DNA of 64,000 nt, taken from the IMG/VR virus record IMGVR_UViG_3300029704_000004, one strand, 5' to 3'. The stretch comes from a virus. A program made the position numbers and the translations under genes. The notes under the pieces were generated by a model that saw only the letters and a program-made list of their open reading frames with translations, ran no database searches and had not been told where the DNA came from. Of the stretch, positions 5,132 to 60,836 are shown one piece after another (the stretch's first letter is position 1; every line of letters starts with the position of its first letter).

Positions 5132-8100
5132 ATGACAAAGAAGTGTAATAGATTAAGAGGTGAACGACCTAAAGCATTTTGGGGTGCTTTAGTTGGTGGT
5201 GCTATGAATTTAATTGGTAGTGCTATTAGTTCTAAATCTCAAGCTAGAGCTATCAGAAGACAAATTGAAGCTCAGAAAGAAGCTGCTCGAACTCAATTAG
5301 AGTTAGCTAATAATAGTAATCTTGCTAGTACGTTGAATAGTTATGTAACTGCTACAAGAAGTTATAATGATGAAGATGATTATAATTTAAAGTATCGTCT
5401 TGGTGGTAATAAACGTTTAGAAAGTAATAGAATTTATATTACTGATGGAGGCAATGCTACTAAGATTGGAAATGATACATACCTTTTACGGGGGGGTTCT
5501 CACGAGCAAACCAATGAGACTGGTCAAACAGGTATTGGTATCAATGTTGGTGGTAACGAAGTTGAAGCTGAGGGAGGTGAAGTTGCTCAGAAGAAGAATG
5601 GTGCTCTAAGAATCTTTAGTGCTCAACCTATTCTTGGTAATGGTATGAGTCCTGCTCAAGCTATTCTTAGAGGTTATAATAAAGATAAAGTATTTAATGC
5701 TCAACAAGCATTTAAGAGAAGAAATGGTCTTAAAGATGATGGAGGTAAAGCAAAATGGGGTATTGGATGGCTTGACAGTTTATTTGGAAACGATAATCCT
5801 AAAAAGAAAACTGTTCATTTTTATAAATCTCAAGCTACAGGTAAAGTATTTAAAACTAGACAAGAAGCTATAGCCGAAAATAATAAATATAAAACTAATT
5901 TAGGTTATAGAAGAACTATCAATAGAGAACGAGAATTTGAAGCTGCTAAAAACAAAAGCGGTAATGAACGAATACCTTATATTAAAGAAAAAGAAATTAA
6001 ATTAAGTAAGGCAGGTAAATTAACAGGAATAAAACTTACTACTAATCAATTAGATAGTATTGCTAAATATGCAAATAAAGTAGGACTTCCTATTAAAACT
6101 GCTTTAGGATTGGTTGGACAAGAAAGTGCTTTTGGAAACTATTTTGGTTATGCAAATAATGCTAAATTTCTAAATGAATATCATAAACAAGGAGAAATGA
6201 ATAGAGATATTTTTGGTATTCCTGCATATAATATAGTAAATTACGAAAGATTACTTCCTAATAAAATACCAACATTGGTAGATGATAATGCCATAAATGA
6301 TAAATACGCAAAAAGAGGTATAAATAAATTTGGATATTCTGCTGTAATCAATGGTGATGAATTAGATAAACTTAAAGTTCAACATGAAGCTTATCCAGGT
6401 CTTGCTAAAAAACGTGCAAAATTTTGGAAAGATATTAAAGTTCCAACTTTGGAATTGGCATTTAAAGCTTATAAAGACCATCCGAATTTATATAATGCTG
6501 GTAATCCTAATCAACAAAATTTAGTTAATAACAAAGCTAATGATGTTTGGGGAAGTCCAGAAATTCAAAAATGGTATAGAACATCTCCTTATGTAAAACA
6601 TCGTCTTGGTGGTCGTTGTAAACTTAGAAATGACGGTTTAACTTCTAAAGATAGAGGTTCTTCTAAACGTCTTTATCCTTCGGTATCATCTAAAGATTTT
6701 GCAGGTGGTGGTAGAAGTTATCCTATTCCAACTAAAGCTGATGCTGTTGATGCTTTAAGACTTGCTGGTCTTCATGGAAGAAGTGATGTTAGAAGTAAAG
6801 TATATAGTAAATATCCTAGTCTTCGTCCTAAAGCTAGAATTGGTGGCAGTTGGAAAGCTCCAGTTTATAATACTAATAAATATAGAGTTTCCAATCGTAT
6901 GAGAAGACAAATAGCAACTTGGGAAGGTTCTGATTTTGCAGGTCAAAATAGAAGATTCAAAGGTGATGCTATTGGTGCTAAAGAAAGAGAACTTAGACGA
7001 ATAATGGGAAGAACTTATAATTATCTTAATGATAATCAAAGAGATTCTCTTAATAGTATTTACTATAATAGTCGAGTTGATACTTTCAAAAATGCTTTTG
7101 GTAAATGGTTTAGAAATTTAAATAGTGCAGTAGATAGAGGTGATGAACGTGCGTTCAATAATAGTCTTGCTGGTATTAGACAAAGTATGACTGTTGGAGA
7201 AAATAGAAAAAGTATGAGTGGTTTAGCTAAACGTAGAGCTTGGGAAAGAAATTGGTTTGGCAATCCTATTCCAATGGATAGTAATGAAACTAAAGCTATT
7301 CTTAATCAACAAGCTGAAGCTAAAATGGTTCAACCTACAGATAATACTAGAGTTGTTATTCAGCCTGAGTATATTGAAATTCCTACTCCTGTCGGTCATG
7401 GTGTTGTTCCAGTAGATAATCCAGACCCTAATTTATTGCAAGGTAATATTAAAGATAATTTAATTAATATGGGAAATAAATTTAGATTAGGACAAAGATG
7501 TGGTGGAAGTACTAGAATGCGTAAAGCCTTAGGTGGTGAAAGCCGCCCCGTAAAAGGCATGAGACGTAAACTTGCTTGGGGTGATGTAACTTATCCTTAT
7601 CGTAGAAATAATAATTTTGATTATTGGGATATTATAGACCAAGAACAAAAAATTAATGATAAAGGTGGTATAAGTCCTTGGACAACATCTAATAAATACG
7701 ATGTTAAAGTTCCTTATGTAATTACTAAGAGTACTCCTACTATTCCTTATACAAGTCAAGTTAGTACTCCAACTTCTGGAGTTTCTGAAAATAAGACTAT
7801 TCCTACTTATACTGGTAATAAGTCGGGTATGATAATTCGTGATGCTGATTGGTATGGTCTTGGAGCTGATTTAGTTTCTAGTATTGGAGGAAGTATTCTT
7901 GGTTTGGGTGCTTATAAAAACTTAGATTTTGATTATAATCTTCCAAACTTTGTAGAGGAAAGTCCAGTTGCTCTTAATACTACTTATCATAATGAAGCTC
8001 AAAAGTCTAATGTTGAACGTAATCGTTTAAATAGTAGAAATAGTATTCTTAGAAATACTATGAGTGGTAGTACTGCTGTTGGTCGTATGCAAGGTGTTGA

Positions 8101-8680
8101 TACTAACGCTTTATATCAACTTAATCAACTTGCTGATGAAAAAACTAATAAAGAAACTGAACTTATGAATCAGAATCTTTTGAACGAACAACAAGTTAGA
8201 GCTAGAAACGCTGCTGCTAGAAATCAGTATTATAATACTGTTGCTAGTATTAAGAATGCTGCTATTCAAGCTAAGAATGAAGCTGAACTTGCTAAGGGAC
8301 AAATTCTTAGTGGAAGTCTTCAAGGTATTGGAAATAGTTTCCAAAACTTTATTAGTCAAGGTCGTCAAAATTATGATGATACTCAAGCTATGCTTATGGG
8401 AGTTGCAGCTTCTGATTATGCTACTCCATCTAGATTACTTGAACTTGGTGTTGATGTTGGTGATGATGCTGCTCTTGCAGGTATTTATCGTTCAGCTATG
8501 AATATTCCAAATCCAGGTGCTAGACCTAAGAGAGAAGACTATTCAGATAATACTGAATATAGTTATGCTCTTACTAGATGGGAGAATCAGAACAAAGCAT
8601 ACCAAAGAAGAAATAGTTATGCTGATTTAATTAAAGGTAGAATGAGTAAAAAGAATCTTATTAAATACGGTATTATTTAA
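5132..8680 (+). CDS. large virion or ejected protein with N-terminal hydrophobic segment; weak lysozyme/transglycosylase-like GQESAFG motif
   Basis: 1182-aa ORF. N-terminal AFWGALVGGAMNLIGSAISS. LGLVGQESAFGNY (E codon 6122-6124) only loosely resembles SLT catalytic motif I. Repeated basic R[LI]GG motifs. Carries two copies of the GC-rich motif. Confidence 0.6.
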   Translation: MTKKCNRLRGERPKAFWGALVGGAMNLIGSAISSKSQARAIRRQIEAQKEAARTQLELANNSNLASTLNSYVTATRSYNDEDDYNLKYRLGGNKRLESNRIYITDGGNATKIGNDTYLLRGGSHEQTNETGQTGIGINVGGNEVEAEGGEVAQKKNGALRIFSAQPILGNGMSPAQAILRGYNKDKVFNAQQAFKRRNGLKDDGGKAKWGIGWLDSLFGNDNPKKKTVHFYKSQATGKVFKTRQEAIAENNKYKTNLGYRRTINREREFEAAKNKSGNERIPYIKEKEIKLSKAGKLTGIKLTTNQLDSIAKYANKVGLPIKTALGLVGQESAFGNYFGYANNAKFLNEYHKQGEMNRDIFGIPAYNIVNYERLLPNKIPTLVDDNAINDKYAKRGINKFGYSAVINGDELDKLKVQHEAYPGLAKKRAKFWKDIKVPTLELAFKAYKDHPNLYNAGNPNQQNLVNNKANDVWGSPEIQKWYRTSPYVKHRLGGRCKLRNDGLTSKDRGSSKRLYPSVSSKDFAGGGRSYPIPTKADAVDALRLAGLHGRSDVRSKVYSKYPSLRPKARIGGSWKAPVYNTNKYRVSNRMRRQIATWEGSDFAGQNRRFKGDAIGAKERELRRIMGRTYNYLNDNQRDSLNSIYYNSRVDTFKNAFGKWFRNLNSAVDRGDERAFNNSLAGIRQSMTVGENRKSMSGLAKRRAWERNWFGNPIPMDSNETKAILNQQAEAKMVQPTDNTRVVIQPEYIEIPTPVGHGVVPVDNPDPNLLQGNIKDNLINMGNKFRLGQRCGGSTRMRKALGGESRPVKGMRRKLAWGDVTYPYRRNNNFDYWDIIDQEQKINDKGGISPWTTSNKYDVKVPYVITKSTPTIPYTSQVSTPTSGVSENKTIPTYTGNKSGMIIRDADWYGLGADLVSSIGGSILGLGAYKNLDFDYNLPNFVEESPVALNTTYHNEAQKSNVERNRLNSRNSILRNTMSGSTAVGRMQGVDTNALYQLNQLADEKTNKETELMNQNLLNEQQVRARNAAARNQYYNTVASIKNAAIQAKNEAELAKGQILSGSLQGIGNSFQNFISQGRQNYDDTQAMLMGVAASDYATPSRLLELGVDVGDDAALAGIYRSAMNIPNPGARPKREDYSDNTEYSYALTRWENQNKAYQRRNSYADLIKGRMSKKNLIKYGII
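5478..5500 (+). repeat. GC-rich 26-nt motif family, copy 1 (G-rich strand on +)
   Basis: CATACCTTTTACGGGGGGGTTCT, inside the CDS, translated YLLRGGS. Confidence 0.9.
7538..7561 (-). repeat. GC-rich motif family, copy 2 (G-rich strand on -)
   Basis: Plus strand reads GAAAGCCGCCCCGTAAAAGGCATG, inside the CDS, translated ESRPVKGM. Confidence 0.9.
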
Positions 8681-8692
8681 AATAAATAAATA

Positions 8693-11332: not shown

Positions 11333-14300
11333 ATGGATTTTGAAGAAATAAAAAATATGGCTACTAATGGTGTTAGTTATATAAATCCTAGCCCTAGTAG
11401 AAGTAAGAAGCATCCAAGTCCTAAAATACTTAATAGTTTAGACCCTATAAAGATTGCTGAATTAACAACTGGTTTTGCTGATAGAGAAATCAATGAAGGT
11501 CTTACTAGTGGTAAAGTTCTTACTAATCAAGCTGATAAAGCAGACCAACTTCGTCATTATGGAGTTACTCCAAATGCTAGTATCGTTGACGTAGATAAGG
11601 TTCTTGCTGAATCTCAAAGTAATCTTCGTAAGTTAGGTTCTGCTGTTAGTCAAGCAGTAGTTAGTGAAATTGGTCTCGGCACTGTAAGAGGTGCCGCAGA
11701 CCTTTTTGACCTTATAGGTAATGTAGTTACAGGAAATGCTGCTAATAATGATTATACTAACCCAGTTAGCGAAAAGATTCAAGAATGGCAAGATTATTTT
11801 AATACTGAAGTTGCTCCTATTTATGCTGACCCAAATTTAGATATAACTAATGGTGGTTTAACTAATTTTGGTTGGTGGGCAAGTAATATGCCAAGTATTA
11901 TGAGTTCTGTTACTTTATTACTTCCTAGTACAGCTGCAACTAAAGGTTTACAATGGTTAGCTAAAGCTTCTGCTGCAAGTAAACTTGGAACTGCTACTCG
12001 TAATGGAATTAAAGCTCTTGTTGGAATAGATAGAGCTCTTGGTAAAGAAGGTAGAACTCTGAATAAATTTCAACAAGGAGTTAAAACTCTTGTAGATGCT
12101 CCTATTAATGGTCTTGGTGCTAGAACTGGACAATTTGTAGAAACAGGTTTAAATGCTGCTTTAAGTAGAACTATGGAGAACTATCAAGAAGCACAAGGTG
12201 TATATAGTGATGTATTTAATACAGCTACTGATACACTTAATAAAATGACTCCACAAGAGTTTACAGAATTTGTCAATAAGAACCAAGACATTTATAATGA
12301 AGCTGGTGGTGATAATGCTAGTAAAGAAGATATTGCTAGAGTTATTGCTCAAAAGTCTGCTAATCAAGACTTCCTTACTAACTATGTAAATATTGGTTCT
12401 GATATTCTTCAATTATATGGTTTACGAAATATGTGGAAAGGTTTAAAGAATGGAGTTAGTTCTTCTACTTTAACTTCTGCTGCTCGTAATGCTAGACGAA
12501 CACTTGGTAAAACTCCTGAAGAAATAGCTGAAATGGAAGCTAAACAATCTTTTTTAAAGAAAGCTGGTCAAAAGATTATTGATAAAGCTTTAGATGAAAA
12601 GACTGTTATTGCTGGAGAACTTAGTGAAGGTCTTGAAGAAGCAGTTAACTATATTTCCCAAATGGAAGGTACTCATCTTGGTAATGTTTATCTTGGACTT
12701 GAAAGTGATTCAGCTTTTGATGATAGACTTCAAAAGTATATGCGAAGTGGAGGTCTTTGGGATAGTGTATTCTGGGGAGTAATGGGTGGTGTTGTATTTC
12801 ATCATTTAGGCAGTGGTTTTGGAAGAATTAGCCAAACTTTAAAAGATAGAGCTGATTCTAAAACTGACGAAAGAACTGGTGAAGGTAAATCAAAATCTAT
12901 GTTTAGTCTTAGTGAAACTTCTGAAATCAAAGCTCGTAAAGCTAATATTGAATCTTGGAACAATAGTATAGAAAACTATTGGAACCAAATGTCCCAAATT
13001 AAAGACGGAAATAATCCTTTTAGTGTTAGCAATGAAGATAAAACTTTCAATAACGATTTAGATAAAGAAGCTGCTGCTCAACGAGCTTATGATGAACTTC
13101 TTACTGGTATGACTTTAAATGCTGCTCATAATGGAAATCTTGGTATGCTTAGAAGTTATATGTCTAGTGATGATGTTCGTAAAGCTATGGTTGATAAAGG
13201 TGTAACTGATGAAGCTAATTCTAAAGTTGACCAACAGAAAGCTTTGGATAAAATGGATGAAGTTACTGCTAGTTATGAAGCTGAATTAAAGAAACTTGTC
13301 AATTTAAGTGAAGCAGTTAGAGTAACTAAACATACTGATGATATTCTTCCTATAGAGTTCTTGCAAAGTATTGCTACTAATAACGTTGTTAATAAACAAT
13401 ACAATGATAAGATTAATACTCAAATTGATGAACTTGATAAGCAAATAAATACTGCTTTTGATAATGAAGATATTAAAAATATTTTAGGTCAAGATTATAC
13501 TCCTGAACAATATCAAATTGCTGCAAGTACCGCTTTGCTTACTAATGAACTTCGTACACTTCAAGCTGAAAGAAGTCGTCTTCTTAGTGATAAAAAGAAG
13601 ATGAATAATATTAGTACTAAAGTTGCTGTTGATAATATCAATAAACTTATGAATAAGTATCAAGACATGATTGATACTAATAGTTTAAGATATGCTCTTC
13701 ATGAATCTTTACAAGGTGCTTATAATGATGAAGGTAAAGTACAAAGTTTTACTAATCAAGCTAGTACTACTCTTGCCAATATACTTAGTGGTAAAACAAA
13801 TAGCGGATTGTGGCTTACTGATGATGATATTGTTGAAGAATTAAAGAACTTTGCTAAGAAGTTCTCTGTTAGTCCTAGAATTGCAGAATTTGAAAATCCT
13901 ACTGATATAGTTAATCAAGTTAGAGAACATGGAACTTATCTCAGAAGGATTAATCAAAAACTTCAAGCTACTGATAAAATTGGAGTAAATGGAACTGATG
14001 GTACTCTTTCAGCTTTACTTGTTAATAAGACTGCTCTTGAATTAAGACGTGCTTATAATGAAAGTAAAATGGTTAATAACGCTGATGAACTTGCTACAGA
14101 GATTTCATTTATGAATAATACTATGAATGAAGGTCGTAAGAAAGCTATTGATTCAGCTTATGAAACTATTACTAAATTATCAGATAAGTACGGTAATGAT
14201 AAATTTGCTGCAAGAATAGGTGATGCTATTGGAGCTTATTATCAAAGAAGTAAAGATGATATTGATTCTATTCTTGATTTTATGAATGAAGATGATAAAT

Positions 14301-17300
14301 CTGCACTTAATGATGCTCTTGATGTTCTTAATCTTACTAAAGGAAAGAATTATCGTTTAGGAGAACAAATTCAAGGTTTCCTTAGTCTTCGTCAAGATAT
14401 ATTTGATAGTCAAGAAAGAGAAGAAAGTCATAATGTTAATAATCCAGATGATAGTAATAATGGTGCTGAACCAGAGAGTACAACTACTCCTCCCCCTAGC
14501 ACGCAAACGACCTCAAATCCTGCGTCACAAGCCACTCAACCTCAGCAGCCTATTAATCAATCGGCAAGCACCCCACAGTCGCCTATAGCGCAAGGAAACA
14601 CGCCTACAGGCAATTCGCAATCACAAAGTGCGCAGCCAACACTACGCAACGAAGTGGGTGAGCGGGTCACAGAATTTTTAAATAGTCATAGTTCTATAAA
14701 ACCAACTAATATAAAAGTAGATAAAAATGGTAATGTTTCTAGTGGTGAACTTACTATTGATAATAATGCTAGAACGGAAGATATATTTGCTTTTATGGGT
14801 AATGCAGATTTATTTGAAAATCCTGAACTCGCTAATATTCCTAGTGCTACTGTAGAAAGAAATCCAAGTTTTGAATATGATGATAATAGTAATCCTATTA
14901 TTATTCAAAAAGGAAAAATTGACGTACAATTAGCAACTGGTCAATCAAATAGTTCAATACCTTTTACGGGGGGGTCTTCTGGTTCTAATGCTAGTACATC
15001 TACACAAGATAATACTAGTACTAATCAACAAACTACTCAGCAACAAGCTCAACCAGCTACTCAACCTCAAGTTGTAGATAGAGCTGAACTTACTGCTAAT
15101 TTTATGGGAAAACTTAGAACTAGTGGTAAAGAAATTAAAGCAGGTAATTTAACTGCTGAAGAGTTTATTAAATCTCTTAAAGATGAAGGTATTGCTCTTG
15201 GAGCAAGTCAAGAAGATATTGACGGAGCTATAACCAGTGTAAAAGCTGTTATGAACAACCTTCTTGGAACTACTTTTGCTTCTAGTGTTGGTGAAGTTAT
15301 GCTTGCTAGTGCAGTAGAGGAATATAAACCAAGTTTATCTTTCGGAAATGAATATAAAGATGCTGCTAATAATATGCTTAAAAATTATGCTTTTGAAGTT
15401 AAACTCAGACAACATAACGGAAAGTATTATGGTAATCTTGAAGATTTACTCCGATATATAAACGAACATAGTCCTAGTAAGAATACTGCTGATTTCATTT
15501 ATAATAGTCTTAAAGAATATCTTAAAACTGAAGAAGCTAAAAAGCAATTTGTAATGCTTGATGCTGATTCAGTTGATGATGCTGAATTTATGACTAATGT
15601 TCGTAAGACTGCTGGTGAACGTAGAGCCGAAGCTATTAAAGCTGGTACTCTTAAACGAGTTAATATTCGTGAGCTTAGTGAAGTAGTTCCTCCTGATAGA
15701 ATTGATGCAAGTTTAGCAGAACTTGATAAAATTAAAGAAGGCGATAAACTTACTGTAAAGAAAGCAAACAAGCTTGCTACTAATACTGATGTTTTATTAG
15801 TTCAACATAATGGTACTACTGTTGGTTGGATGGGTATTCCTACTTTTGATGTATCAACAGGAAGATATATTCAAGTTAACGATTGTATCAAATATACTGT
15901 AGGTAGGTCTGCTGAATATGATGGTGCTGTTAAAGATTGGATTCTTTCTATAGCTGACCCAAAAGATGAAGATAGTAGAAAACTTAACGACCTTCTTTAT
16001 AAAATAGCATTTGATAAGAAATATGATGGTTCATTTGTTGAGAAGTTTAAGAATAATCCTAGAGTTCAGGAAGCTGTAAAGAATGATTTTATAGTTATCA
16101 ATAAAGATAAAGGTTTTACTTATGCTAAAGCTCTTGATGGTATGGTTAAATTATGGAGATATAATCCTAATGTATCTTCTTTTAATCCTATTCCTGAAAG
16201 TATTAAATTGTTCTTTGATAATCTTAGAACTAGTTATCAAACTAGTTTAGCTTTGATTAATAACAATCAAGAACTTACTGTTAGTAAAATAAGTAAAGGT
16301 GAACTTCTTAGACTTGCTCCGCATGGAACTCCTGGAGAAGCATTTAGATTTGCTCAACCTGCAAGTATTGCTATTAGTAGTAAAACTGATGCTAGAATAG
16401 CTTTAGCTAGAAATCTATCTCAAATTGAAGTTAGCGGTAAGCAAACTAATGATAATCTTGGTTTTAGAATGAACCAAACATTAATTGCTATCGATAATGG
16501 AAATGGTACTATAGATTATACTAATGCTTATCCTGTAAATTGGGGAGTTACTAACTATGAGAAAGATGGTAAACTTGTAAATATGCCACATAGTAAAGTT
16601 CTTGCTGATTTAACTAACGCTATTGAAGGGCAAATTATTGATAGACTTACTAATCTTCAGAAAGGTGATAGTTTAGCTAATTGGAATGAGTTTAGAAGTT
16701 TTCTTGATACTCTTCTTGATTATAACAATAATAGTACTCTATTTAAAACTAGTGGTGTTTTTCATCGTAACAATGGACTTACTTATATTAATGCTGGAAG
16801 TAAAGCTGTAGCACTTTATGCTTGTGATACTAAACGTACTGGTGCTCCTACACAACTTGTATTTATGGAACATGGTAAAAAAGTTAGTAGTTATAGCTTG
16901 TTAGATAATGGAGCTGAAGCTGGTAAAGCTCTTGTTCAATTCCTTAGAGAAAACGCTACTGTAAACTTTGCTCACGAACTTCTTAGTAGTGATAATAATA
17001 CTTCTATTCCTTTAAAAGGTTTTGTAAGTAGAAATGCTGACGGAAAACTTGTGATTAATATACCTGAGTATAATGGTAAAAATGGTTTTAATCGTGTTGA
17101 AGAATCATATAATGATTTTATGATTAAGAATGATTTACTTAGAGTAGATTTAGCTCAAGTTGATGGAAGTAACTATTCAAGATTTTCATCTAATATGAAA
17201 GCTAATAGCGTACTTGAATTTACTGTAGGTGATGAGGTGAAACAAGAAGAAGAAAAGCCACTAGAACCCCCCCGTAAAGAGAATGTATCCACCAATACCA

Positions 17301-18421: not shown

Positions 18422-21400
18422 ATGGCTAATAATTGTAGTTTAAAATTTAATGAAACTAAGGTTTACACCAACCTTAAAGCTGAAGTTGGAAACGATGATG
18501 TTTTATTTAACAGCTTAATGAGTGCAGTAATTGATGGTTCTAGACCATCTGGTTTTAACAAGGAATTTGAAACCTATTATGCTAATAATTATGGTTCTAT
18601 TCCTAATACAAATGATGAAAGTAAAGAAGTTGCTACTGCTATTCAAAATTTTTATAAGAATAGAAATTTTAATGTAAATGAGCATACAACTGATTCTGCT
18701 TTCATTTCTGATGTTAAGTCTAAAGGTTATACTAGTACTGCTGCTAAAACTTGTGGTATTAGAACTACTGGTAATTTGATGTTAGCATTCTATCATAACG
18801 ATTTAATTAAAGGTCGTCTTGAAGAACATGCTGAAGATAGAAAAGATAATCTCGCAAATAGAGTTATAAATCGTATGTTGGGAGCTGTAGCAACAAATAT
18901 TCTTGAAGCTAGAAAAGTAGAAGCTACAAAAGAAGAAATTGCTAAAGTTCGTAAACAACTTATGAATACTAAGAGTAATGATTTTGTTAAGCTTGAGGAT
19001 GAAGTTTCTAAAACTACTCCTCAACTTAGAAATCAATTTGCTACTCTTAAAGATATGCTTTCTGATAAAGTTAAATATTTTACTCAAGTTATTCAAACTG
19101 ATGATAGACTTGGCGAAATTCGTTTTAAGAAAGATGATGATTTAAGTCAGCAAGAAGCAGATTGGAGTGAAAGTTTCGATATAGAAGATGATGATGATTT
19201 AAATCTTAACAATGCTGCTGATAATGCAAGTAACAACGAAAAAGATACTACTACTGCTCGTTGGGAAGATAATGGAACTAAATCTGACTTTATGAAAGAT
19301 TTTAGTTTTGCTGTTCGTAGTTATCTTTCAACTATTCCTAAACTTAGTAGTACAGAAGTAAGTGCTGACGGTAAATATCAATATGATAAAAGTAATCCTC
19401 TTGGAATGGTAGATTATATGGATTTTAAAGTCGTAAACTCTGCAATTAGAGGAGATATTGAAACTACTAATATTGATGCTTTTTTAAAGAAACTTGAAGA
19501 TATTGCAAAATCTAATAAAGAATATGCTGGTCTTGCTTATTTAGCTAATGACCTTAAAAAGAAACCAGATTTTGCTTATAAATTATTTCAAGTTTATAGA
19601 AGAAGAACTATAAGAAAACAGCAAGTTCGTATTGATGATAATTCTGTTTCTCCTACTAGAAGTAATAATCGTGCAGATAAACTTGAAACTTTAAGAATTA
19701 ATTATCTTAATGATATTAAGTCAACTGCTCTTAATATCATGATTGAAGATACTAATGATATTCTTGGAGCAATTAAAACTAAAATAGATGATTATAAGAC
19801 ACTTCAAAAAACTAAAGGATTTGATTTAAATAAACAAGCATTAAGTGCTGATATTATCAATGCTATTGCTAGTCGTTTAAAGCAATATTATCCTTCTCTT
19901 GATAAAGCTGCTATTGAAAGATTCGCTAGACTTAATGGAAAAGTTGACGGTAAAACTCCAAATATTGCTAATAATCTTACTCAACTTTATGGTTATCTTG
20001 AGAATACTGCAAAGTATGCTAACGAAACTCTTAATAATAAGCGAAATCTTGATAATAGATTTAAAGAAGCTAACAAGATTAAAGATAAGAAAGCTAAGAA
20101 AGAAGCTCTAGATAGTGTTCGTGAAGCTTATAAACAAGGCTATCTTTCTACTAATACAAAAGCTTATGCTCTTGAATTAGCTAAATCTTTAGCTCCATAT
20201 TCTGTAGTTAATATTGATTCTAATTCTACTAATGCTCTTGGTAATCAGTCTGCTGACCAAATTAATGACAGTATGATTACTAATTTCCTTAATGCAGTTA
20301 AAGCAACTTTAACTGAACAGCAAAAAGATGGAAGCAAAGTTTCTACTGAACTTATTAATTATGGAAAGTATAAGTTCCAAGGAGTACAATACAATCTTAG
20401 TGGTATTCTTATGGAACATCGTGATGAGAATGGTGCTGTAATTAATTATGGTCTTTTCTACAAAGATAAAGACGGTAATATTCAAATCACTAATTATGCT
20501 AGAGATATGGTTAATATCTCTTTGTTCGATGGTGCAGGAAATCCTAATACTAAAGATAATGTTCTTTATTCAGGTATGTCTAAAGGAGATTATGTATATA
20601 CAGGATTTGCTCAATACTTTAATACAGAGCAAAATCCTAAGATGCTTATGGGTGATTACTTTATGCGTATTCCTTCTGATGCTCCAAAGAACTTTGTAGT
20701 TCATGCTCCTAGATATAAAGTTGATGGCTTATTCTCTAAGATGCACGCTATTAAAAATGCTAAAGGTGAAGTTATAGCTAAAGAAGTTAGTGTTGATGAT
20801 ATTAACGAAAATCATCCAATAGTACAACAGTTTAGAAATATATTCAAACAGGAACTGTTGGATATGGTAAACTTTATCAACATTGTATTTGAAGTTAAAG
20901 AAAATACAGAAACTCTTGAAGATGGTACAGTTGTTGACCAAAGAGGAAGAATTGTATTTAATAATGACAATACTCCAATGTTTAAAAAAGGTTGGGGATT
21001 AGATGCTGAATCTGCTCGTAGAGTATTTGCTAATTATCATATTGGTAAAGGACATAAACATTTTATTGAAAAGAAAGGTGATGGTTGGGCATTTAATGGA
21101 CTTCTTTTTAAAGATGATAGATTTGTTCTTACAGATTATAAAACTGGTACAACTACAAAGTATGGTGACGATTTATTAAAATACTTGTTTCCTTCTCTTT
21201 ACGGGGGGGCTAGAGATGGCTTTATTCCTTTCACTACTAACGCTAATGGTGAAGTAGAACTTAACCTTACAGCAGACCAAGAAGCTATGATTACTAGAAT
21301 GGTTAAAGGTTTTGTAACTGACTATTCTAATAATGCTATTACTCGTATGAGCGAATATAAAGACCTTGACATTAATAATCTTATTAATGAAAAGAATAGT

Positions 21401-31831: not shown

Positions 31832-31844
31832 ACATTAAATGGTT

Positions 31845-47816: not shown

Positions 47817-49229
47817 TCAATCTACAATACAATAATCATAATTATTATCACTTTTAACTTCAATTTCAGTTTTATTAAGAATTAGATGATTTGCGCCATT
47901 AACACGCTCATCTAGTTTTTTCTCCTCTAAAGAGCCTTTATAATATAAGGTGTATAATTGTACCTCCTTTGCGAATTGAACCTTTGAGAGCCTATATAAG
48001 TAGGTCTCCATGGTATCACACAACGGCGACGTAATTACAACAACGTCTACATTTACGGCTAAATCCTTATCGGGAGAAGCATTTGTAGACAAAACGTGAA
48101 TAGCACCTTTGTTCATCAACTTTTGAGCTAAATTTTTCTGAGATTTTACACCAAGCATTTTTGGTTTTCCCTTATTAACTCCACTCTTAATTAGAACTTC
48201 ATTTCCATTATCATCAATAGCAGGAATATTTTCTACTTTATCGTGATAATTATAACAAGTATTATAATGAGTATTATCATTAATATATTTAGTTACTTCA
48301 TTTGCAAAGTCACCATGTTTATTAATAATAAGAATATTCTTATCTGCATTGTCTTCAACAATCTTTAAAATATAACTAAGTTTCTCATCAGAAGAAGCAA
48401 GAGCAAGACTTCTACTTCTAATAATTTCGTATATTCCACTAGCACGTTCTTTAAGGGCATTTGGAGAATAAAGTTCGTCTATTTCAATATTAAATTGAAT
48501 AGTCATATCAAGATTCTCATTCCAACCATTTTGACGAGCTATGTTATAACATACAGCCATACTAGAACTATTAGTATTACTATTACCTAGACGAGCCATC
48601 TTAATTGTTTCAAAGTCACCAAAGATAGCTATAGCAGTAGATATTTCTTTATTATAATAGTCAAGTTTCTTTTTAAGATTACTATCTTCATCTATAATCA
48701 AAGGAACTAATACTTCTTTTACGGGGCGGCTAGAACGGATTTCATCTACACTAGCTTGATTATAATAACCAACTCTAGGAATTAGATTATTAATTTGTTC
48801 TAACTTACCAGTAAGTAGAGTTGATGATAATACCAACTTAAACTTTGCTTTGTCTAGCAGACCTACATAACAATAAAGACATTCTTTAGGATTATAAATA
48901 ACCACTAAAGTAGGATTTAGATGACTAAATATATCTGTAGCTTCACTAACAGTTAAAATTTTAATCAATCCTCTAGTAATAAAATTACTATAAACATTAG
49001 AATGAACAGGTTCGCTCTTATGTAATAGATAATCTTTAACTTTGTCTTTATCTACAAAGTCTGCAACTACAATATCAGTCTCTATTGTAGGACTTTTATT
49101 ATACATTGCAGGAAGTATCATCAATAAAGGTCTAAGAACATCTAAAGGAGCAGGAATTATAAAAGTTCCAATTCCTTTATTCATTCTCCATTGATAAACA
49201 CTTTTTTCATGCAATTCTTCTTCTGTCAT
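47817..49229 (-). CDS. SF2 helicase-like protein (C-terminal helicase domain pattern, no Walker A seen)
   Basis: NILIINKHGDFANEVTKYIN ... LMNKGAIHVLSTNASPDKDLAVNVDVVVITSP ... YLYRLSKV resembles helicase motifs IV-VI. No GxxxxGK[ST] found. Carries motif copy 12. Confidence 0.4.
   Translation of the reverse strand: MTEEELHEKSVYQWRMNKGIGTFIIPAPLDVLRPLLMILPAMYNKSPTIETDIVVADFVDKDKVKDYLLHKSEPVHSNVYSNFITRGLIKILTVSEATDIFSHLNPTLVVIYNPKECLYCYVGLLDKAKFKLVLSSTLLTGKLEQINNLIPRVGYYNQASVDEIRSSRPVKEVLVPLIIDEDSNLKKKLDYYNKEISTAIAIFGDFETIKMARLGNSNTNSSSMAVCYNIARQNGWNENLDMTIQFNIEIDELYSPNALKERASGIYEIIRSRSLALASSDEKLSYILKIVEDNADKNILIINKHGDFANEVTKYINDNTHYNTCYNYHDKVENIPAIDDNGNEVLIKSGVNKGKPKMLGVKSQKNLAQKLMNKGAIHVLSTNASPDKDLAVNVDVVVITSPLCDTMETYLYRLSKVQFAKEVQLYTLYYKGSLEEKKLDERVNGANHLILNKTEIEVKSDNNYDYCIVD
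48711..48736 (+). repeat. GC-rich motif family, copy 12 (+)
   Basis: TACTTCTTTTACGGGGCGGCTAGAAC. Translated on the minus strand as SSRPVKEV. Confidence 0.9.
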
Positions 49230-50290
49230 TGTTCTTCTTCATTATCAAATAAATCATTATATAATCCAAAATTCTTCTTTAACAAAGATTTTCCACTGAG
49301 AGTTTTATTCTTTGAATTACCTTTCTGATTAGGACTTATTCCGAGCTTAATAGGATTAATAATCTTATAAGCTTCTTCATAATAATAAGCATAATCTATA
49401 TTACGCTCACTAATATCTTTATCATCAAGTAAATTAAGAATTTGTACTGGTTTTCCACTAGCTAAAACACTACGAGCACCAGTAGTTACGTGTTCTTTCA
49501 TAATCACAACTCCTTTAGTAGAAACATAAAATCTAACATGACGTTGACTATGTATATCTACTACTTTTCCGTCAACTACTTTTTGATAAACAACTTCAAA
49601 TTGTCTACCTACATTTTGAGTTTTACAGAAATCAAGAATATCTTTATGATTACGAAGCGTTTCCATTACAGATTTACCATGAGCAAAATACTCAAATACA
49701 GCAGTAGCTACAACTGGCATATCATATCCTTTTTTAAGGTCTTTGATATACTGTTTTGGGTCTAGTGCTCCTTTATACTCAATTTTATCGTTACTTTGAA
49801 TATCAAAATAGTTATTCACATTTAAGCTAACAAGCATCTTGTAATGTTCATCATCAGCAGACATCTTATTAGTTTCATTCCATTCTTTACAAATTTGATT
49901 ATAAACATCAACTTTGTCATAAGGAAGTTTTATAACGATACCATCAGTATTTGCACTAACTACATGTATTCCTGCTAATTCAAGAGATTCACAAAGAGTC
50001 ATTGTCATTAACTGACCATTAATTGTAACTCTCATTTGTGCAAGTCTATCATAAAGCCAGAAATTTTCATAGCCATACTTTCCGTAAATAGCATTGATTA
50101 CAATCTTCAATGCTTCTGCTGCAAGTTTATTATGAACTCCTGGTACTACAAAACCATCTTTATCGTCTGTATGTTTACATTTAACACGAGTTTGTTTAAA
50201 GTAATCTACCATTTTTGCAAACACCTTACGATTAAGATGTGCAGGTACTACTTCATAACTTATCATTATACTCGGATAATATGATGTATA
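49226..50290 (-). CDS. family B DNA polymerase, exon 2
   Basis: Begins YTSYYPSIM (second half of motif A DxxSLYPS). LKIVINAIYGKYG is motif B (KxxxNSxYG). VSANTDGIVI is motif C (DTD-like). Confidence 0.8.
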   Translation of the reverse strand, partial: YTSYYPSIMISYEVVPAHLNRKVFAKMVDYFKQTRVKCKHTDDKDGFVVPGVHNKLAAEALKIVINAIYGKYGYENFWLYDRLAQMRVTINGQLMTMTLCESLELAGIHVVSANTDGIVIKLPYDKVDVYNQICKEWNETNKMSADDEHYKMLVSLNVNNYFDIQSNDKIEYKGALDPKQYIKDLKKGYDMPVVATAVFEYFAHGKSVMETLRNHKDILDFCKTQNVGRQFEVVYQKVVDGKVVDIHSQRHVRFYVSTKGVVIMKEHVTTGARSVLASGKPVQILNLLDDKDISERNIDYAYYYEEAYKIINPIKLGISPNQKGNSKNKTLSGKSLLKKNFGLYNDLFDNEEEQ

Positions 50291-51381
50291 CAAATTTGTT
50301 AATCTACATATTTCTATGTAGTTCAGACTATATCTTCATTGCGCACCATAATAGTTCTTTCTCTACCCTTACCACTAGTAATAACATTTCCAGCATCATC
50401 AAGATAATGCCAAATATATCCTTTACCAGTCTTTTTAGAACCATTACAACAACCTAATAATGTGGATTTTGCAAGTCCACTAGCTTTACAAGCTTCATCG
50501 CTATTTTCATATTCAGCAATCTTATGACCATCATATCTATCAAATTGACCAATACGATTAAATTTAAGTTTCCTCATCTTTTCACGGAACTCTTTAGTTT
50601 TATGAGTTTCGTGAGATTGAGTAGCCCAAGCTAAACGTTGACTATCAGAATGATAAGTATCTTTAATCATAAGATTATATAGTTTAGACAAACCATAAGA
50701 CTTTTGATAATCTCTTTCTTTTTCAAATAGATTTTCATTAGTCTCTTCAAGTATGCTAACTTTGAATTTATCTATACCATATTTATTATAATCAGCTTGT
50801 AATCTTTTATTAGGATGATTACCTAGTCTAAGATTACTATAATGTTTTACTACACGTTTATAAATATCTTTAGAAGAACCAATATAATTTTGATTATTTA
50901 TTTCACAAGTGATACAATAAATACCACTTTTATCTTTTAAATGAGTAAAATAACCATAATATACATTTTGATTACTTCTAACTTTACCATAACCGTTAAA
51001 CCCATCAGGAGTAGCATTTTTATGTTTTCTACTTACCTTAATCTTAGACACATCAAATACTAACTTTAATTTCGACAAATCTTTCATAATCTTTATAATT
51101 TAAATTATTAATAAAACACTGTGAAACAAAGGTAATATCTTTTGGGTAATAACACAATGCAAGGTGCTTCGATTTAAATAAATTTAAACCTACGTCTTAC
51201 GACTAGTCGTTGAACCTTCTTCCTTATTAGGAAGCTCGGCTGCGGATTGTCCAATATTATCTTCTTTTACTATACTCTCAGTCTTTCTCTGAGACCAACA
51301 TCTGCATTACTGCGATGATTAGTGAGATAATCTCTAAGGAGTTCCCCGTCAATTCACCTTGTTTAATCACGACTTACATCA
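50291..51381 (-). mobile_element. group I intron carrying a GIY-YIG homing endonuclease gene
   Basis: 1091 nt split polB motif A. Exon 1 ends ...CACGAU and pairs with the intron's GUCGUG (51368-51373), a P1 helix with a U-G pair at the splice site. The intron's last nucleotide is G (50291). Splicing restores the frame HHD|YTSYYPS. The 51088-51381 segment is GC-richer and structured. Confidence 0.7.
50323..51087 (-). CDS. GIY-YIG homing endonuclease (intron-encoded)
   Basis: SGIYCITCEINNQNYIGSSKDIYKRVVKHYSNL gives GIY-N10-YIG plus conserved R and H. The C-terminal ACKASGLAKSTLLGCCNGSKKTGKGYIWHY resembles NUMOD/IENR1-type DNA-binding modules. Confidence 0.8.
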   Translation of the reverse strand: MKDLSKLKLVFDVSKIKVSRKHKNATPDGFNGYGKVRSNQNVYYGYFTHLKDKSGIYCITCEINNQNYIGSSKDIYKRVVKHYSNLRLGNHPNKRLQADYNKYGIDKFKVSILEETNENLFEKERDYQKSYGLSKLYNLMIKDTYHSDSQRLAWATQSHETHKTKEFREKMRKLKFNRIGQFDRYDGHKIAEYENSDEACKASGLAKSTLLGCCNGSKKTGKGYIWHYLDDAGNVITSGKGRERTIMVRNEDIV

Positions 51382-52590
51382 ATCGTGATGAACATAAACA
51401 TATTTATCAGTACTTTTAAGTATTACAGGCTTGTCTTGAGTATGAATACCACCAGTTGCTAGAGTATACGTTGTACCATAAAATTCTATTTCACGTACAA
51501 AACTATCTTTATTAGTTCTATATATAACAACTTTCTTCATTTCTTCAAGTAAATCTTGAAGTTGTTTAGTCTTAAACTTAATATGAGGAAATATTATTTT
51601 ATTAAAACTAAGAGCAGTTCTTTGTGTACGAAGATTTTTAAAAGCATCTTCATGCAAACCACTACGTTCAGCATAAAACTTATTTAATAGTTTATCTGCA
51701 ATATTACTTCTAGCACTACATAAGAAGTTTATTCTATAAGCGTGACCAAGACTATATCTAAGTATAACTTCATCAGGCTTTTGTCTTACCATTTCACAAC
51801 AAAGAAATACATCATTCTTATTATAATGTAACATAGGTTCAACATACTTAGGAAGAAGATACCTATTAAAATCAGCAGTAATCAAATGATTTAATTGTTC
51901 ATTAGTCATACCTCTATAAGCATCTCTTTTTCTATATATATCACCTTCTTCATCATCAATAGGAGGAAGTTTAAAATCAAGAAGATTATACCATTTAAGA
52001 TTAATACTAACTTGTTTTAAACTTTTACCATACTTCTTACGTTCACCAGTGTCTTTATCTATATTCACTCCAGCAGAATTAAGAGCAAATATCTTAAACA
52101 AATCTACAGTTACATAATGAACTCTATACTTACGAATAAGATTTAACAGTTTATCTTGCCATAAAGCATCTTTATCATCTTGTAATGATATAATTTTATC
52201 ATTCACTTCTTTAAGAAATGAACAAAGTTGTTTTGTATTATCAAAACGATTCCAATACATTAGAAATGCTTTAATCAATATATCATCATATCCTTGATTG
52301 TTATAACCATATAAATCATATCTGTCAACAGAACCATCTTCATGTTCTACAGGTCTCATTTTTTCAAAGAAATCTATAATACTCAACATTTGAGAATCAT
52401 CTGTATCACTAACATAAAATATCCAGCTTTTTACACTATCAAGTCTAGATGTTATTTCTTCAACTGTTAAACTATCAGTAAGAGCACCTTTACAATCTGC
52501 AAATTTATCAAGATAATCTTTTAAATCTACAAAAGTAAACGAAATCATATTCTCAAAGACTTCCAAGTCCACACATAAACTATGTATCAT
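51382..52590 (-). CDS. family B DNA polymerase, exon 1 (3'-5' exonuclease domain)
   Basis: ExoI VDLEVF, ExoII YNNQGYDDILI, ExoIII YNKNDVFL. Ends ...YVYVHHD (the D of motif A). The track end at 51379 includes an in-intron TGA. Confidence 0.8.
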
Positions 52591-53149
52591 TTAATATATT
52601 AACTATTTCCATTCCATTATAATTATTATCTTTATTAGCACTAATCCATTTAATTAGACGATTACAAAATTCTTTGTATTTACTATCATCTATGAATTTA
52701 ATAAAAGGAGAGTAATTTGTACTATAAACAAAAGGAGCAACATGATATAGTTTATCTTTACCTTTAGTAATATCAAAACCAAAATCAGTAGCAGCTCTAC
52801 CGAGAACCATTATCTTTTTAATATTATTTATTCTTATATCAGCAAATGTATGTAGCATACATCTACGAACTATACTTTCGTTTATAGGACATTTATCATC
52901 AAGCTTACAACGAATAAGTGGAACAATAAAGGGGACTAGTTGCTCTAGCCCCCCCGTAAAAGGTGTAATAACCTCATTTATTATCTCAACATACTTACTA
53001 AATGTCATTCCTCTATTCTTATAAGCATTGTAATCAACATTTGGTACAACAATAATCATACCAGACATTGGATTACCAACACCACTAAGACATTTACACT
53101 TAGTATTAAACATACCTAAAGGACAACCTTCACATACTTTAGGAATCAT
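52580..53149 (-). CDS. uracil-DNA glycosylase-like protein (family 4-like, divergent)
   Basis: N-terminal CEGCPL as in family 4 UDGs, and position next to polB. The canonical GExPG motif is not seen. Carries motif copy 13. Confidence 0.35.
   Translation of the reverse strand: MIPKVCEGCPLGMFNTKCKCLSGVGNPMSGMIIVVPNVDYNAYKNRGMTFSKYVEIINEVITPFTGGLEQLVPFIVPLIRCKLDDKCPINESIVRRCMLHTFADIRINNIKKIMVLGRAATDFGFDITKGKDKLYHVAPFVYSTNYSPFIKFIDDSKYKEFCNRLIKWISANKDNNYNGMEIVNILNDT
52943..52967 (-). repeat. GC-rich motif family, copy 13 (-)
   Basis: Plus strand reads CTCTAGCCCCCCCGTAAAAGGTGTA. Translated on the minus strand as TPFTGGLEQ. The adjacent GGGGACTAG (52931-52939) can pair with CTAGCCCC. Confidence 0.9.
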
Positions 53150-53194: not shown

Positions 53195-53587
53195 TTAATC
53201 TTTACTAGGTTCAACATAATCTTCTACTTTCTCATAATGCCCAACAGCATAATTATCATGTATAGAAGCAATAAACATGAATATATTATCACGTTTGCCC
53301 CAAGTTTTATCTAGTTTACGTTTGTAACCATAAACAATAACTGTACCATCAACGCTAGCTTCAAGTTTAGCAACTTTATAATACTGACGTTTAACACCCC
53401 AAGCATTATTAGATTCAGTTACATAAACATCACCAACTTTAATAGGACAATTAACAAGAATATCAGCAGTTGCTGCTTCGTTAAGAGCATTCATACGATT
53501 CTGATAATCTTTCTTTATTTCATCTTCTTTATTAATGTAACATTGTACACGTTCTTTAAAAGAAGGAATATTACTTGTATTACACAT
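53195..53587 (-). CDS. hypothetical protein, paralog family with 56318..56626
   Basis: KKDYQNRMNALNEAATADILVNCPIKVGDVYV compared with RKDYNNRIKNLTNKFFKDNNIPLKVGDRVMV. Confidence 0.55.
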   Translation of the reverse strand: MCNTSNIPSFKERVQCYINKEDEIKKDYQNRMNALNEAATADILVNCPIKVGDVYVTESNNAWGVKRQYYKVAKLEASVDGTVIVYGYKRKLDKTWGKRDNIFMFIASIHDNYAVGHYEKVEDYVEPSKD

Positions 53588-53616: not shown

Positions 53617-53643
53617 ACATACCTTTTACGGGGCGGCTTTATG
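53617..53643 (+). repeat. GC-rich motif family, copy 14 (+), intergenic
   Basis: ACATACCTTTTACGGGGCGGCTTTATG. Confidence 0.9.
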
Positions 53644-53706: not shown

Positions 53707-54024
53707 CTAGCGTACACGTAGAGTAATTGACCATTCTGCCAGGTCGAAATCGAAAGGTGTGTTAACATTCTCAGGTATTATAGTTATAAGTTTATGAACT
53801 TCATTATCAGCTTTAATAACTGCTTTAGCACCAACTACAACACCATAAAGTTTATTAATTCTACCTTTATTCTCAAGCTTTACAGAATCATTAACTTCAA
53901 GGTTAGAATTTCTAAGAACTACATCAGCTATTACATTTTCGTAATATTTAATTTGTTCTTTACAATCTTCTATTCCTTTAAGAAATTTTCTATAATCTAA
54001 AGGATTTAAATTAACTTCATCCAT
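53707..54024 (-). CDS. hypothetical small protein
   Basis: 105-aa ORF with an 8-nt overlap to the helicase gene. Confidence 0.55.
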   Translation of the reverse strand: MDEVNLNPLDYRKFLKGIEDCKEQIKYYENVIADVVLRNSNLEVNDSVKLENKGRINKLYGVVVGAKAVIKADNEVHKLITIIPENVNTPFDFDLAEWSITLRVR

Positions 54025-56713: not shown

Positions 56714-56742
56714 TTCTAGCCTCCCCGTAGAGAAGTTAGCAT
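56714..56742 (-). repeat. GC-rich motif family, copy 15 (-), divergent; supplies the stop codon of 56716..57057
   Basis: Plus strand reads TTCTAGCCTCCCCGTAGAGAAGTTAGCAT. On the minus strand this is CTA CGG GGA GGC TAG, giving ...LRGG-stop. Confidence 0.8.
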
Positions 56743-57057
56743 ACAATCATTTTCCTTTTCTAACTTATCACATACATTAAGTATGAAATTAATACCAGCA
56801 TGTCTAACAGCAATTATATCTTTAATTACAGTAGTCATATCATGCTGAGTTAATTTCATAAGAAAATATATAGTTCTAAAACCTCTACGAGTATTAAGAG
56901 GAAAGTTATAAGGAATAATATAACCTTTACATTTTGAAGAATGTTTGTAAAAGTCTTTCTTATCAACATAACCATTACATTGTACAACTTCTCCAAAATC
57001 AGGCACACAACAATGTCTTGTATCAAACTGATAAAGACAACTATTACATAGTATCAT
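56716..57057 (-). CDS. Cys-rich hypothetical protein
   Basis: 113 aa with N-terminal CNSC ... HCC ... C pattern. Ends in LRGG, encoded by the motif. Confidence 0.55.
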   Translation of the reverse strand: MILCNSCLYQFDTRHCCVPDFGEVVQCNGYVDKKDFYKHSSKCKGYIIPYNFPLNTRRGFRTIYFLMKLTQHDMTTVIKDIIAVRHAGINFILNVCDKLEKENDCMLTSLRGG

Positions 57058-60472: not shown

Positions 60473-60518
60473 AATTCTTTAATTTAAAATGTTTATAATG
60501 TTAATTAATACGAATAAT

Positions 60519-60836
60519 TTATTTATATACTTTACCACTAGTTAAACTTTCATTTATTTCTCTACTATAGAAATTATCTCCATCTATATTAGATAAATCA
60601 ATATGTTTACTAAATGCTAAAGAATCTATTGAATCTTTATATTTCATACCTTTTACGGGGCGGCTAGAACTATTATCTGGTTCTACCATATTAATATTAT
60701 GATTATTATAATTAATATTATTTTCATCATATATTAATATTCCATTAAGATAAATAATATAACTAAATATACTTAATAATAAAATAATAATAAGTATCAG
60801 CAATAGTTTATTTTCTGTTTTCTTTTCCATAATCAA
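60519..60836 (-). CDS. small membrane protein (N-terminal TM)
   Basis: LLLILIIILLLSIFSYIIYL. Carries motif copy 16 (SSRPVKGMK). Confidence 0.55.
   Translation of the reverse strand: MIMEKKTENKLLLILIIILLLSIFSYIIYLNGILIYDENNINYNNHNINMVEPDNSSSRPVKGMKYKDSIDSLAFSKHIDLSNIDGDNFYSREINESLTSGKVYK
60644..60670 (+). repeat. GC-rich motif family, copy 16 (+), full consensus
   Basis: TCATACCTTTTACGGGGCGGCTAGAAC. Confidence 0.9.

Follow-up and report, generated by a model that had tools for sequence, protein, structure and literature searches.

Conserved DNA words dispersed over a phage genome are a kind of element that is already known, and the 24-base motif CATACCTTTTACGGGGSGGCTAGA, with 17 copies in a 64,000-nucleotide stretch of viral DNA (IMG/VR virus record IMGVR_UViG_3300029704_000004; the whole stretch is called the window), belongs to this general kind. 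Dispersed asymmetric C1 operators are found in phage P1, and stoperators are 13-bp sites which are mostly intergenic and co-oriented with transcription. The likeness of the motif to the stoperators of Cluster A mycobacteriophages would lie in many asymmetric dispersed sites, one phage protein and a co-evolving consensus (PMC9283540, PMC6550527). The nick-motif phages (T5; phiKMV; Pseudomonas tf, Rembedalsseter, WACTRTGAC) also carry a conserved asymmetric word, about 13 times per genome, which lies in and out of coding sequence and is retained in diverged relatives; the function of these nick-associated motifs is still unknown (PMC11780129). DNA uptake sequences (DUS in Neisseria, and the uptake signal sequences, USS, of Haemophilus) are words at the nucleotide level that are read in several coding frames and form inverted pairs between genes. 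Chi sites, which are 5-8 nt long, are set by the host enzyme and are over-represented in the host genome; a Chi-like reading of the motif draws on their being a strand-specific, orientation-dependent signal for a helicase-nuclease that is useful only if it recurs regularly. Finally, Rickettsia palindromic elements (RPE) are repeats tolerated in open reading frames (ORFs), and among the repetitive extragenic palindromes and bacterial interspersed mosaic elements (REP/BIME) the BIME show alternating orientation.

The window was found by megablast to be about 98% identical to the uncultured crAss-like phage cr8_1 (MT774384.1, 92,668 bp; Crassvirales, Intestiviridae, Obtuvirinae, Fohxhuevirus). 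The Intestiviridae include the prototypical crAssphage, which is described in the literature as among the most abundant and prevalent human gut phages, and the replication, genome ends and lifestyle of these phages are still under debate. A G+C content of about 30% was observed in the window, which consists of a plus-strand gene arm (163-31831) with giant ORFs of the virion/transcription block (1023, 630, 1182, 855, 2338 and 4469 residues) and a minus-strand gene arm (about 33100-64000) which is the replication module. Within it, the 11-mer TTTACGGGGGG was matched 15 times at one mismatch or fewer against 0.05 expected from shuffles, and the full 24-mer 8 times at three mismatches or fewer against 0 expected. 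A profile of the copies identified 16 strong copies (E <= 3.4e-5) and a weak one at 56715-56738 (-), and motif copies account for 17 of the 19 ACGGGG hexamers present. Information is densest in a 17-bp core, CCTTTTACGGGGSGGCT, when the copies are aligned, and two types were distinguished by a variable base, G-type (GGGGGGG) and C-type (GGGGCGG). Sequence comparison establishes the motif family as candidate cis-acting DNA sites, asymmetric and about 24 bp long, which appear to be written over existing codons where needed. We consider it very probable that they are selected at the DNA level as sites for a phage factor.

Eleven copies lie within unrelated ORFs, five outside ORFs and one over a stop codon. 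The hosts are three giant virion-protein ORFs (1182, 2338 and 4469 residues), a primase, an SNF2-type helicase, a uracil-DNA glycosylase (UDG) and proteins of 216 and 105 residues, which agrees with the claim of an earlier note on this DNA that the host proteins are unrelated and have the DNA word in common. The translations quoted in that note were all found to be correct, and the G-rich form on the sense strand does cover three frames. In the first, TAC CTT TTA CGG GGG GGT encodes YLLRGG in the G-type copy at 5478..5501 (+), which is sense in the 1182-residue ORF 5132..8680 (YLLRGGS). In the second, CCT TTT ACG GGG GGG encodes PFTGG in two G-type copies, at 14956..14979 (+), sense in the 2338-residue ORF 11333..18349 (IPFTGGS), and at 52944..52967 (-), sense at about residue 63 of the UDG ORF 52580..53149 (TPFTGGL); the diverged copy AATACCTTCTACGGGGCGGGTAGA at 39711..39734 (-), sense in the 216-residue ORF 39449..40099, gives PSTGR (IPSTGRVE). 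In the third, TTT/CTT TAC GGG GGG encodes LYGG or FYGG in the G-type copies at 21191..21214 (+), sense in the 4469-residue ORF 18422..31831 (SLYGGAR), and at 43928..43951 (-), sense at about residue 275 of the primase ORF 43547..44770 (TFYGGDR).

The C-rich form on the sense strand was likewise found in two frames. CGC CCC GTA AAA encodes RPVK in four C-type copies that are antisense to their genes, at 7538..7561 (-) in ORF 5132..8680 (SRPVKGM), 24731..24754 (-) in ORF 18422..31831 (NRPVKV), 48711..48734 (+) at about residue 167 of the helicase ORF 47817..49229 (SRPVKE) and 60645..60668 (+) in the 105-residue ORF 60519..60836 (SRPVKGM), the last of which is a perfect match to the consensus. 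CCC CCC CGT AAA GAG encodes PPRKE in the other frame, in the G-type copy at 17262..17285 (-), antisense in ORF 11333..18349 (EPPRKEN). Seven copies were added to those the earlier note had listed, namely the non-ORF copies beginning at 31844, 35023, 35092, 41057 and 53618, the stop overlap at 56715 and the coding copy at 39711.

The codons that spell the motif are otherwise rare in the same ORFs, where GGG forms 1.9% of the glycine codons, ACG 1.9% of threonine, CCC 2.4% of proline and CGC 1.6% of arginine, and about 10 of the approximately 18 GGG codons in the analysed ORFs sit within motif copies. When coding sites were set against their counterparts in distinct relatives (67 comparisons), third-codon positions diverged by 2.8% within the 17-nt core and by 8.9% over 150-nt flanks, an odds ratio of 0.29; as the comparisons are non-independent, the p-value of 1e-5 is indicative only. 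Third positions are therefore about three times less variable inside the motif than outside it, in line with the synonymous-site comparison that the earlier note had proposed. The core was kept in relatives with flanks 63-99% identical and was unchanged even where the flanks were 63-85% identical.

The most telling DNA-level test is the primase site, where the frame moves while the DNA word stays. This site is orthologous in all seven Intestiviridae genomes examined and was observed in two different reading frames. The window has ACC TTT TAC GGG GGG (TFYGG), whereas the orthologous site reads CCT TTA CGG GGG AAT (PLRGN) in crAss002 and cr107_1 and CCT CTA CAG GGG AGT (PLQGS) in Rudgehvirus. 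The peptide at the helicase site was also observed to track the DNA variant of each lineage (RPVKE, TPVEE, SPIKE and LPVEE). Rare codons, third-codon positions, a core kept despite diverged flanks and the primase frame change thus support the claim of nucleotide-level conservation, and orthologue alignments gave the opposite of what protein-level conservation with freely varying codons would give. It is the DNA that imposes seemingly conserved peptides such as RPVK or FTGG, and for this reason caution is called for in annotation and in selection scans.

The word was found in more than 120 IMG/VR stretches, mostly crAss-like contigs of 90-100 kb, and each lineage was observed to have its own version. 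The Hacihdavirus cr271_1 has TCTTCTACGGGGGAGCT in 17 copies, which are every ACGGGG of its genome. Twenty-eight copies of CTCCTYTAYGGGGGAA occur in crAss002 (Jahgtovirus, cultured on Bacteroides xylanisolvens) and 31 copies of ATCCTCYACGGGGRGTC in the prototypical crAssphage (Carjivirus communis), while 41 kb of cr3_1 holds 17 copies of TTCCTCTACGGGGGAAC and 41 kb of Rudgehvirus jaberico about 13 copies of CTCCTTTACAGGGGAGT; cr107_1 too has its own variant. A sense site in the primase and an antisense site in the helicase are common to all seven genomes examined (gene maps of the relatives are the depositors' annotations). Obtuvirinae further share the sense copy in the UDG, a copy that directly follows the giant gene's stop codon and an inverted pair before an IHF-like gene, the last of which is not kept in crAss002 or crAssphage. 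The giant gene of crAss002 has a sense copy at a relative position like that of the 21191 copy (about residues 880-925 of about 4250-4470). Shared positions of this kind show that the sites have come down at orthologous places from a time before the Intestiviridae genera split.

That each lineage has a single word at these ancestral positions implies that the sites change in concert with their reader. The 17-mer was searched for in 185,579 bacterial and archaeal species genomes, where 57 single hits were obtained, about the estimated chance level, and no genome had several; these scattered single hits rule out a host repeat. Both crAss002 and Rudgehvirus infect Bacteroides, yet their consensus differs. 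As the word is not a bacterial repeat and differing words are found in phages of one host genus, the reader would most simply be phage-encoded.

The ACGGGG word is absent from crAss001 (Steigviridae, MH675552.1), which like crAss002 and Rudgehvirus is available in culture. The most over-represented 9-mer of that genome is CTTCTGGAG, with 27 copies against about 0.35 expected; its orientation alternates in 20 of 27 transitions (p = 0.004) and its per-strand coefficient of variation (CV) is 0.45-0.54. Removing ACGGG from the cr271_1 word leaves TCTTCTGGAGCT. The crAss001 word may be related to the Intestiviridae word, their homology being unproven.

The copies are arranged along the genome in a regular manner. 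Neighbouring copies were observed to alternate in orientation in 22 of 27 transitions in cr8_1 (permutation p = 0.0024), 24 of 29 in crAss002 (p = 0.0005), 22 of 31 in crAssphage (p = 0.02) and 12 of 17 in cr271_1 (p = 0.06), where the p-values are non-independent because these four complete genomes, like all genomes compared here, have common ancestry. The strands are balanced, with 14 (+) and 13 (-) copies in cr8_1, 16 and 13 in crAss002 and 13 and 18 in crAssphage. Gaps between copies on one strand, with means of 5.4-8.4 kb and of about 6-7 kb in the phage of the window, showed a CV of 0.31-0.45 against about 0.9 for random placement (P <= 0.003 in seven of eight strand classes), whereas the two strands pooled were mildly regular (CV 0.64-0.69). 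Evenness that is stronger per strand than pooled points to two interleaved strand-specific series, from which the alternation follows. Between the plus-strand copies at 53618 and 60645, the alternation is made good by the weak copy AACTTCTCTACGGGGAGGCTAGA at 56715..56738 (-), which is sense and overlaps the stop of ORF 56716..57057.

Copies between genes are enriched: they make up 13 of the 27 in cr8_1 and, in the 93% coding genome of crAss002, 7 of 28. In cr8_1 a stop codon is often followed at 1-20 nt by an antisense copy, and sense non-coding copies precede a start codon by 12-67 nt. Three of the five non-coding copies in the window are antisense and C-type: 31844..31867 (-) is 13 nt behind the stop codon of the 4469-residue ORF, a placement seen alike in cr8_1 and cr271_1; 41057..41080 (+) is 11 nt downstream of the stop of ORF 41092..41448, and its cr271_1 orthologue occupies the equivalent stop-to-start gap; and 53618..53641 (+) lies between ORFs 53707..54024 and 53195..53587. 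The other two are G-type and form a close inverted pair, 35023..35046 (+) and 35092..35115 (-). Close inverted pairs fill three spacers in cr8_1, and one is found just upstream of an IHF-like gene in cr8_1 and cr271_1.

In the window the 35092-35115 copy has a G-run of 9 nt, and the length of this run differs by 1-3 bases from relative to relative. The cr8_1 record begins and ends at the 35023/35092 pair, which is probably a homopolymer assembly break and not a physical end. In crAssphage (BK010471.1), two of the closely spaced divergent pairs of copies, at 28082/28178 and 95750/95870, adjoin the two RepL genes (gp43, 28718..29272; gp88, 96138..96794), near which a recent paper predicted replication origins; a link of these pairs to replication is possible.

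The variable base was observed to be coupled to gene direction. Sense copies in cr8_1 are G-type by 8:3 and antisense copies C-type by 12:2, and in crAss002 sense copies carry ACG by 11:4 and antisense copies ATG by 11:3. A single orthologous site can have G in one relative and C in another. We cannot tell whether transcription, replication direction or coding constraints underlie this coupling.

A signal that recurs at regular intervals on each strand regardless of gene content fits an enzyme acting on DNA strands better than gene expression. We lean, with a confidence somewhat short of even, towards sites of a DNA-processing (DNA metabolism) class rather than of gene expression. Such an enzyme would read the duplex sites strand-specifically and would need a regularly spaced signal on each strand. 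Homing-endonuclease-type enzymes recognise 17-24-bp asymmetric sites that are tolerated inside conserved genes. Site-specific nicking is, by analogy with phages that carry localized nicks, the likeliest single mechanism, although a doubtful one when taken by itself; a phage nickase with a long, homing-endonuclease-like recognition site would make single-strand nicks as in T5, phiKMV and tf-like phages. Phages that share little nucleotide similarity nevertheless keep their nick-associated motifs, in coding as well as non-coding DNA (PMC11780129). Variants of this proposal would be sequence-specific priming or helicase-loading sites, or a Chi-like control sequence for a phage helicase-nuclease/RecT system. 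Constitutive terminators or roadblocks are disfavoured because both orientations lie in essential ORFs of 7-13 kb.

Several observations weigh against a DNA-processing role. Nicks, primers and protein binding at the sites would all be predictions from sequence. The known nick motifs are confined to one strand (PMC11780129), but the strands are balanced here. Since the correlation of the variable base with gene direction extends to non-coding copies, transcription could matter, although gene direction may be confounded with replication direction in two-arm genomes. About half of the cr8_1 copies lie between genes, often near stops or starts, which suits a role in gene expression too. An HNH endonuclease encoded beside the ligase gene in cr8_1 and cr271_1 was considered as the reader and rejected, since it is missing at the syntenic place in the window, which nevertheless has all the sites.

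The main rival, which we regard as unlikely, is that the copies are dispersed operator or roadblock sites comparable to stoperators and the C1 operators of P1. A monomeric or heterodimeric phage protein would bind all of the approximately 30 sites, repress promoters and block RNA polymerase from either direction, and the genome would be silenced in the carrier or phage-plasmid state that crAss-like phages are reported to adopt; a plasmid-like persistent lifestyle has been proposed for crAssphage (PMC10983915). The sites suit this role in being asymmetric, dispersed and about 17-31 per genome, in their enrichment between genes and their placement right behind stop codons or just ahead of starts, and in the coupling of the variable base to gene direction. 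The inverted pair directly preceding the IHF-like gene of both cr8_1 and cr271_1 also speaks for operators, and the consensus is lineage-specific like that of stoperators and their repressors (PMC9283540, PMC6550527). However, half of the copies lie within ORFs, the orientation alternates where stoperators follow transcription, even spacing per strand is not expected of operators, and the pair upstream of the IHF-like gene is not kept in crAss002 or crAssphage. No repressor candidate turned up, in work that included no systematic search for one.

Alternating orientation and regular spacing would also be expected of architectural sites for packaging, ejection or looping, bound by IHF/HU-like proteins, since with alternation a zig-zag or rosette fold would bring all sites into parallel alignment. 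Proteins of the IHF type typically bind long asymmetric sites, IHF-like genes are kept across the crAss-like family, and a site pair stands upstream of the IHF-like gene in two genera. We nevertheless consider this improbable. The regularity is far stronger per strand than pooled and fits two strand series better than one folding ladder, no resemblance to the known IHF consensus was found in the sites, and the architectural reading is purely speculative.

It is quite improbable that the copies are promoters for the phage transcription machinery, either a virion-packaged two-barrel RNA polymerase or a phage-modified host polymerase. The 12-nt upstream part would be the recognition element and the G-run the start site, and antisense copies would give rise to antisense RNAs or replication primers. 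The build is like that of T7-class promoters, being about 23 bp and asymmetric with a G-run behind an AT-rich segment and a consensus that shifts with lineage, and the sense non-coding copies upstream of start codons are placed as promoters would be. A virion RNA polymerase whose early promoters are unknown is carried by crAss-like phages (bioRxiv 10.1101/2020.03.07.982082), which also favours this role. In phi14:2, however, early transcripts had no common upstream motif, and host-type -35/-10 promoters serve the middle and late genes. About half of the copies face against genes, including inside 13-kb ORFs, and copies are found in every gene module and not in one temporal class, which argues against a conventional promoter set; no copy lies ahead of the major capsid gene.

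Many near-identical copies in unrelated genes and spacers, and a few similarity breakpoints at or near copies (5432, 24751-24766, 53609-53616 and 60622), might suggest small in-frame mobile elements (RPE-like or resembling miniature inverted-repeat transposable elements, MITE) or a selfish repeat spread by gene conversion. This is very improbable and largely refuted. The cr271_1 helicase (42% identity) aligns without gaps at the site, where it has a diverged copy of the word, and the primase and helicase sites are collinear in the seven genomes. The UDG site is present in Obtuvirinae and absent in Crudevirinae, whose UDGs show no 6-9-codon length difference there, the gaps in the family alignment on which this comparison relied being just 1-3 residues; a phmmer search of the UDG against PDB and Pfam, asking whether PFTGG overlays a known UDG motif, gave no match. 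Motif positions are orthologous across genera at 30-50% protein identity, and across subfamilies while the word changes in concert. Each of the 17 window copies is matched by a single partner in cr8_1, and no presence/absence polymorphism was observed among aligned relatives. The absence of indels at the sites, collinear positions and the lack of polymorphism reject mobile insertion and support selected sites. The unit is moreover just about 24 nt, non-palindromic and non-folding, and breakpoint enrichment near the sites is weak. The earlier note had offered selection or insertion acting on DNA or RNA, of which selection, as overwritten codons, held and insertion did not; its RPE-like in-frame logic failed as well, as there are no extra codons, no palindrome or hairpin and no polymorphism.

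The similarity of some relatives to the window starts or stops within about 60 nt of a copy (5432-5742, 24751-24766, 53609-53616 and 60622), and one relative diverges directly after the RPVKV copy (24731..24754), where it has about 370 extra nucleotides. A hotspot of recombination breakpoints was examined by comparing the window with about 120 related stretches and was rejected, as 5 of 212 ends lie within 30 nt of a copy against 3.2 expected. Within 60 nt there are 13 of 212, about twice the estimated uniform rate, many of them non-independent, and most breakpoints were observed to fall at gene borders.

No common hairpin emerged when the copies were folded one by one with 50 nt of flank, and no Rfam family matches the motif. 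As single-stranded DNA the window consensus folds at 0 kcal/mol and those of other genera at -0.1 to -3.2 with weak z-scores. A Y5-YAY-G5 pattern in all genera permits C-G or T.G pairing, with a predicted stability that is nil for the window consensus and weak for the others; it is a genuine sequence pattern that does not suffice to argue for a structure. Hairpin promoters of the N4 type (5-7 bp stem, 3-nt loop) and ssi priming signals form a stable hairpin in single-stranded DNA. Long-range sense-antisense RNA pairing was considered and rejected, as G-type with C-type leaves a central G-G mismatch and the crAss002 types a C-A mismatch, so that such pairing is not what is selected. Protein constraint, already refuted, or a structured mRNA element is extremely improbable as the source of the similarity, for although P-[VI]-[KE]-E is retained at the helicase site of every genus and C or T always occupies the five positions preceding the central YAY, opposite five Gs (so that C-G or G-U pairs could form in RNA), the motif is read in five frames of unrelated proteins and in non-coding DNA, with rare codons and a frame change at the orthologous primase site, and has no consistent predicted hairpin, no Rfam match and half of its copies on the wrong strand for any one RNA.

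Other features were noted in the window. A single CTTGACGGGGG element at 63545-63554 (+), which is also found at 64558 in cr8_1, 92493 in crAss002 and 93 in crAssphage, is non-coding and near the arm junction in all four. It resembles the G-run half of the motif, but TTGAC replaces TTTAC; it may be promoter-like or origin-associated. A tRNA gene lies between the two gene arms at 32027-32097 (+; Rfam 59.2 bits; tRNA-Gln in the cr8_1 annotation), about 160 nt from the motif copy behind the 4469-residue ORF. Residues 17-63 of the 1182-residue ORF 5132..8680 gave a weak match to T7 gp14 internal virion protein (PF24072, E = 7e-4, below the curated cut-off), which fits an ejection-protein role for the block.

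The family-B DNA polymerase gene is interrupted by an insert of about 1.09 kb, 50294-51378 (-), between ORFs 51379..52590 and 49226..50293, which is not present in cr8_1. The insert encodes a 254-residue GIY-YIG endonuclease (Pfam PF01541, E = 4e-9) and has a group I intron match (RF00028) on either side, both of which, at 39.8 and 34 bits, fall short of the gathering score of 50. Joined together, the polymerase halves correspond to the 757-residue cr8_1 protein, and the cr271_1 and cr3_1 polymerases are likewise annotated as two pieces. At 85628-86299, cr8_1 has a 78-residue ORF and the putative HNH endonuclease between the DNA ligase gene and a 118-residue ORF; the ligase gene abuts the 118-residue ORF at about 41449-41456 in the window, with about 0.7 kb including the HNH gene missing, which looks like the gain or loss of a free-standing homing endonuclease.

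Full-text literature on the word, its crAssphage version and crAss repeats, promoters or nicks yielded no description of the motif, and a recent paper on crAssphage culturing does not mention it. A signal of 17-24 bp, present about 17-31 times per genome and older than the genera, which dictates amino acids in a primase, a helicase, a UDG and giant virion proteins, points to an unknown step in the DNA biology of crAss-like phages. The lineage-specific word also gives a compact marker for classifying crAss-like contigs.

The motif differs from each of the described systems in its own way. Nick motifs keep to a single strand, are shorter (9 nt in tf-like phages) and show no even spacing, whereas the present sites are balanced, alternating and even; the nick-motif phages have localized single-strand interruptions, while the sites here are known from sequence alone. 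Compared with stoperators, the sites are longer (17-24 bp), lie by half inside ORFs, alternate and are about equally sense and antisense. DNA uptake sequences belong to bacterial chromosomes, number hundreds to thousands of copies and serve competence machinery, and the word here is phage-specific; the parallel to them drawn in the earlier note holds as an analogy but not as membership, as none of the bacterial genomes scanned has the word as a repeat. The 17-nt core is longer than Chi, two phages of Bacteroides differ in their consensus, and the phages studied here encode a Gam-like nuclease inhibitor. RPE, REP and BIME are palindromic, hairpin-forming, longer and mobile or variable, whereas the unit here adds no codons and is found at orthologous positions.

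We could not find a known system with the balanced, alternating and per-strand-regular arrangement together with family-wide conservation inside essential genes, and regularity of this arrangement is not reported for other phage motifs. A mechanism of a new kind is a tentative possibility. In the same tentative sense, the Intestiviridae, and probably all Crassvirales given the like pattern of CTTCTGGAG in crAss001, may carry an unrecognised genome punctuation, which might for example direct where a DNA-tracking machine is loaded onto or released from each strand in replication, recombination or ejection. Such punctuation would consist of two interleaved, evenly spaced, strand-specific series of sites, kept throughout the history of the family even within essential genes, and would be read by a co-evolving factor that stands outside the known nick, Chi, operator and promoter systems.

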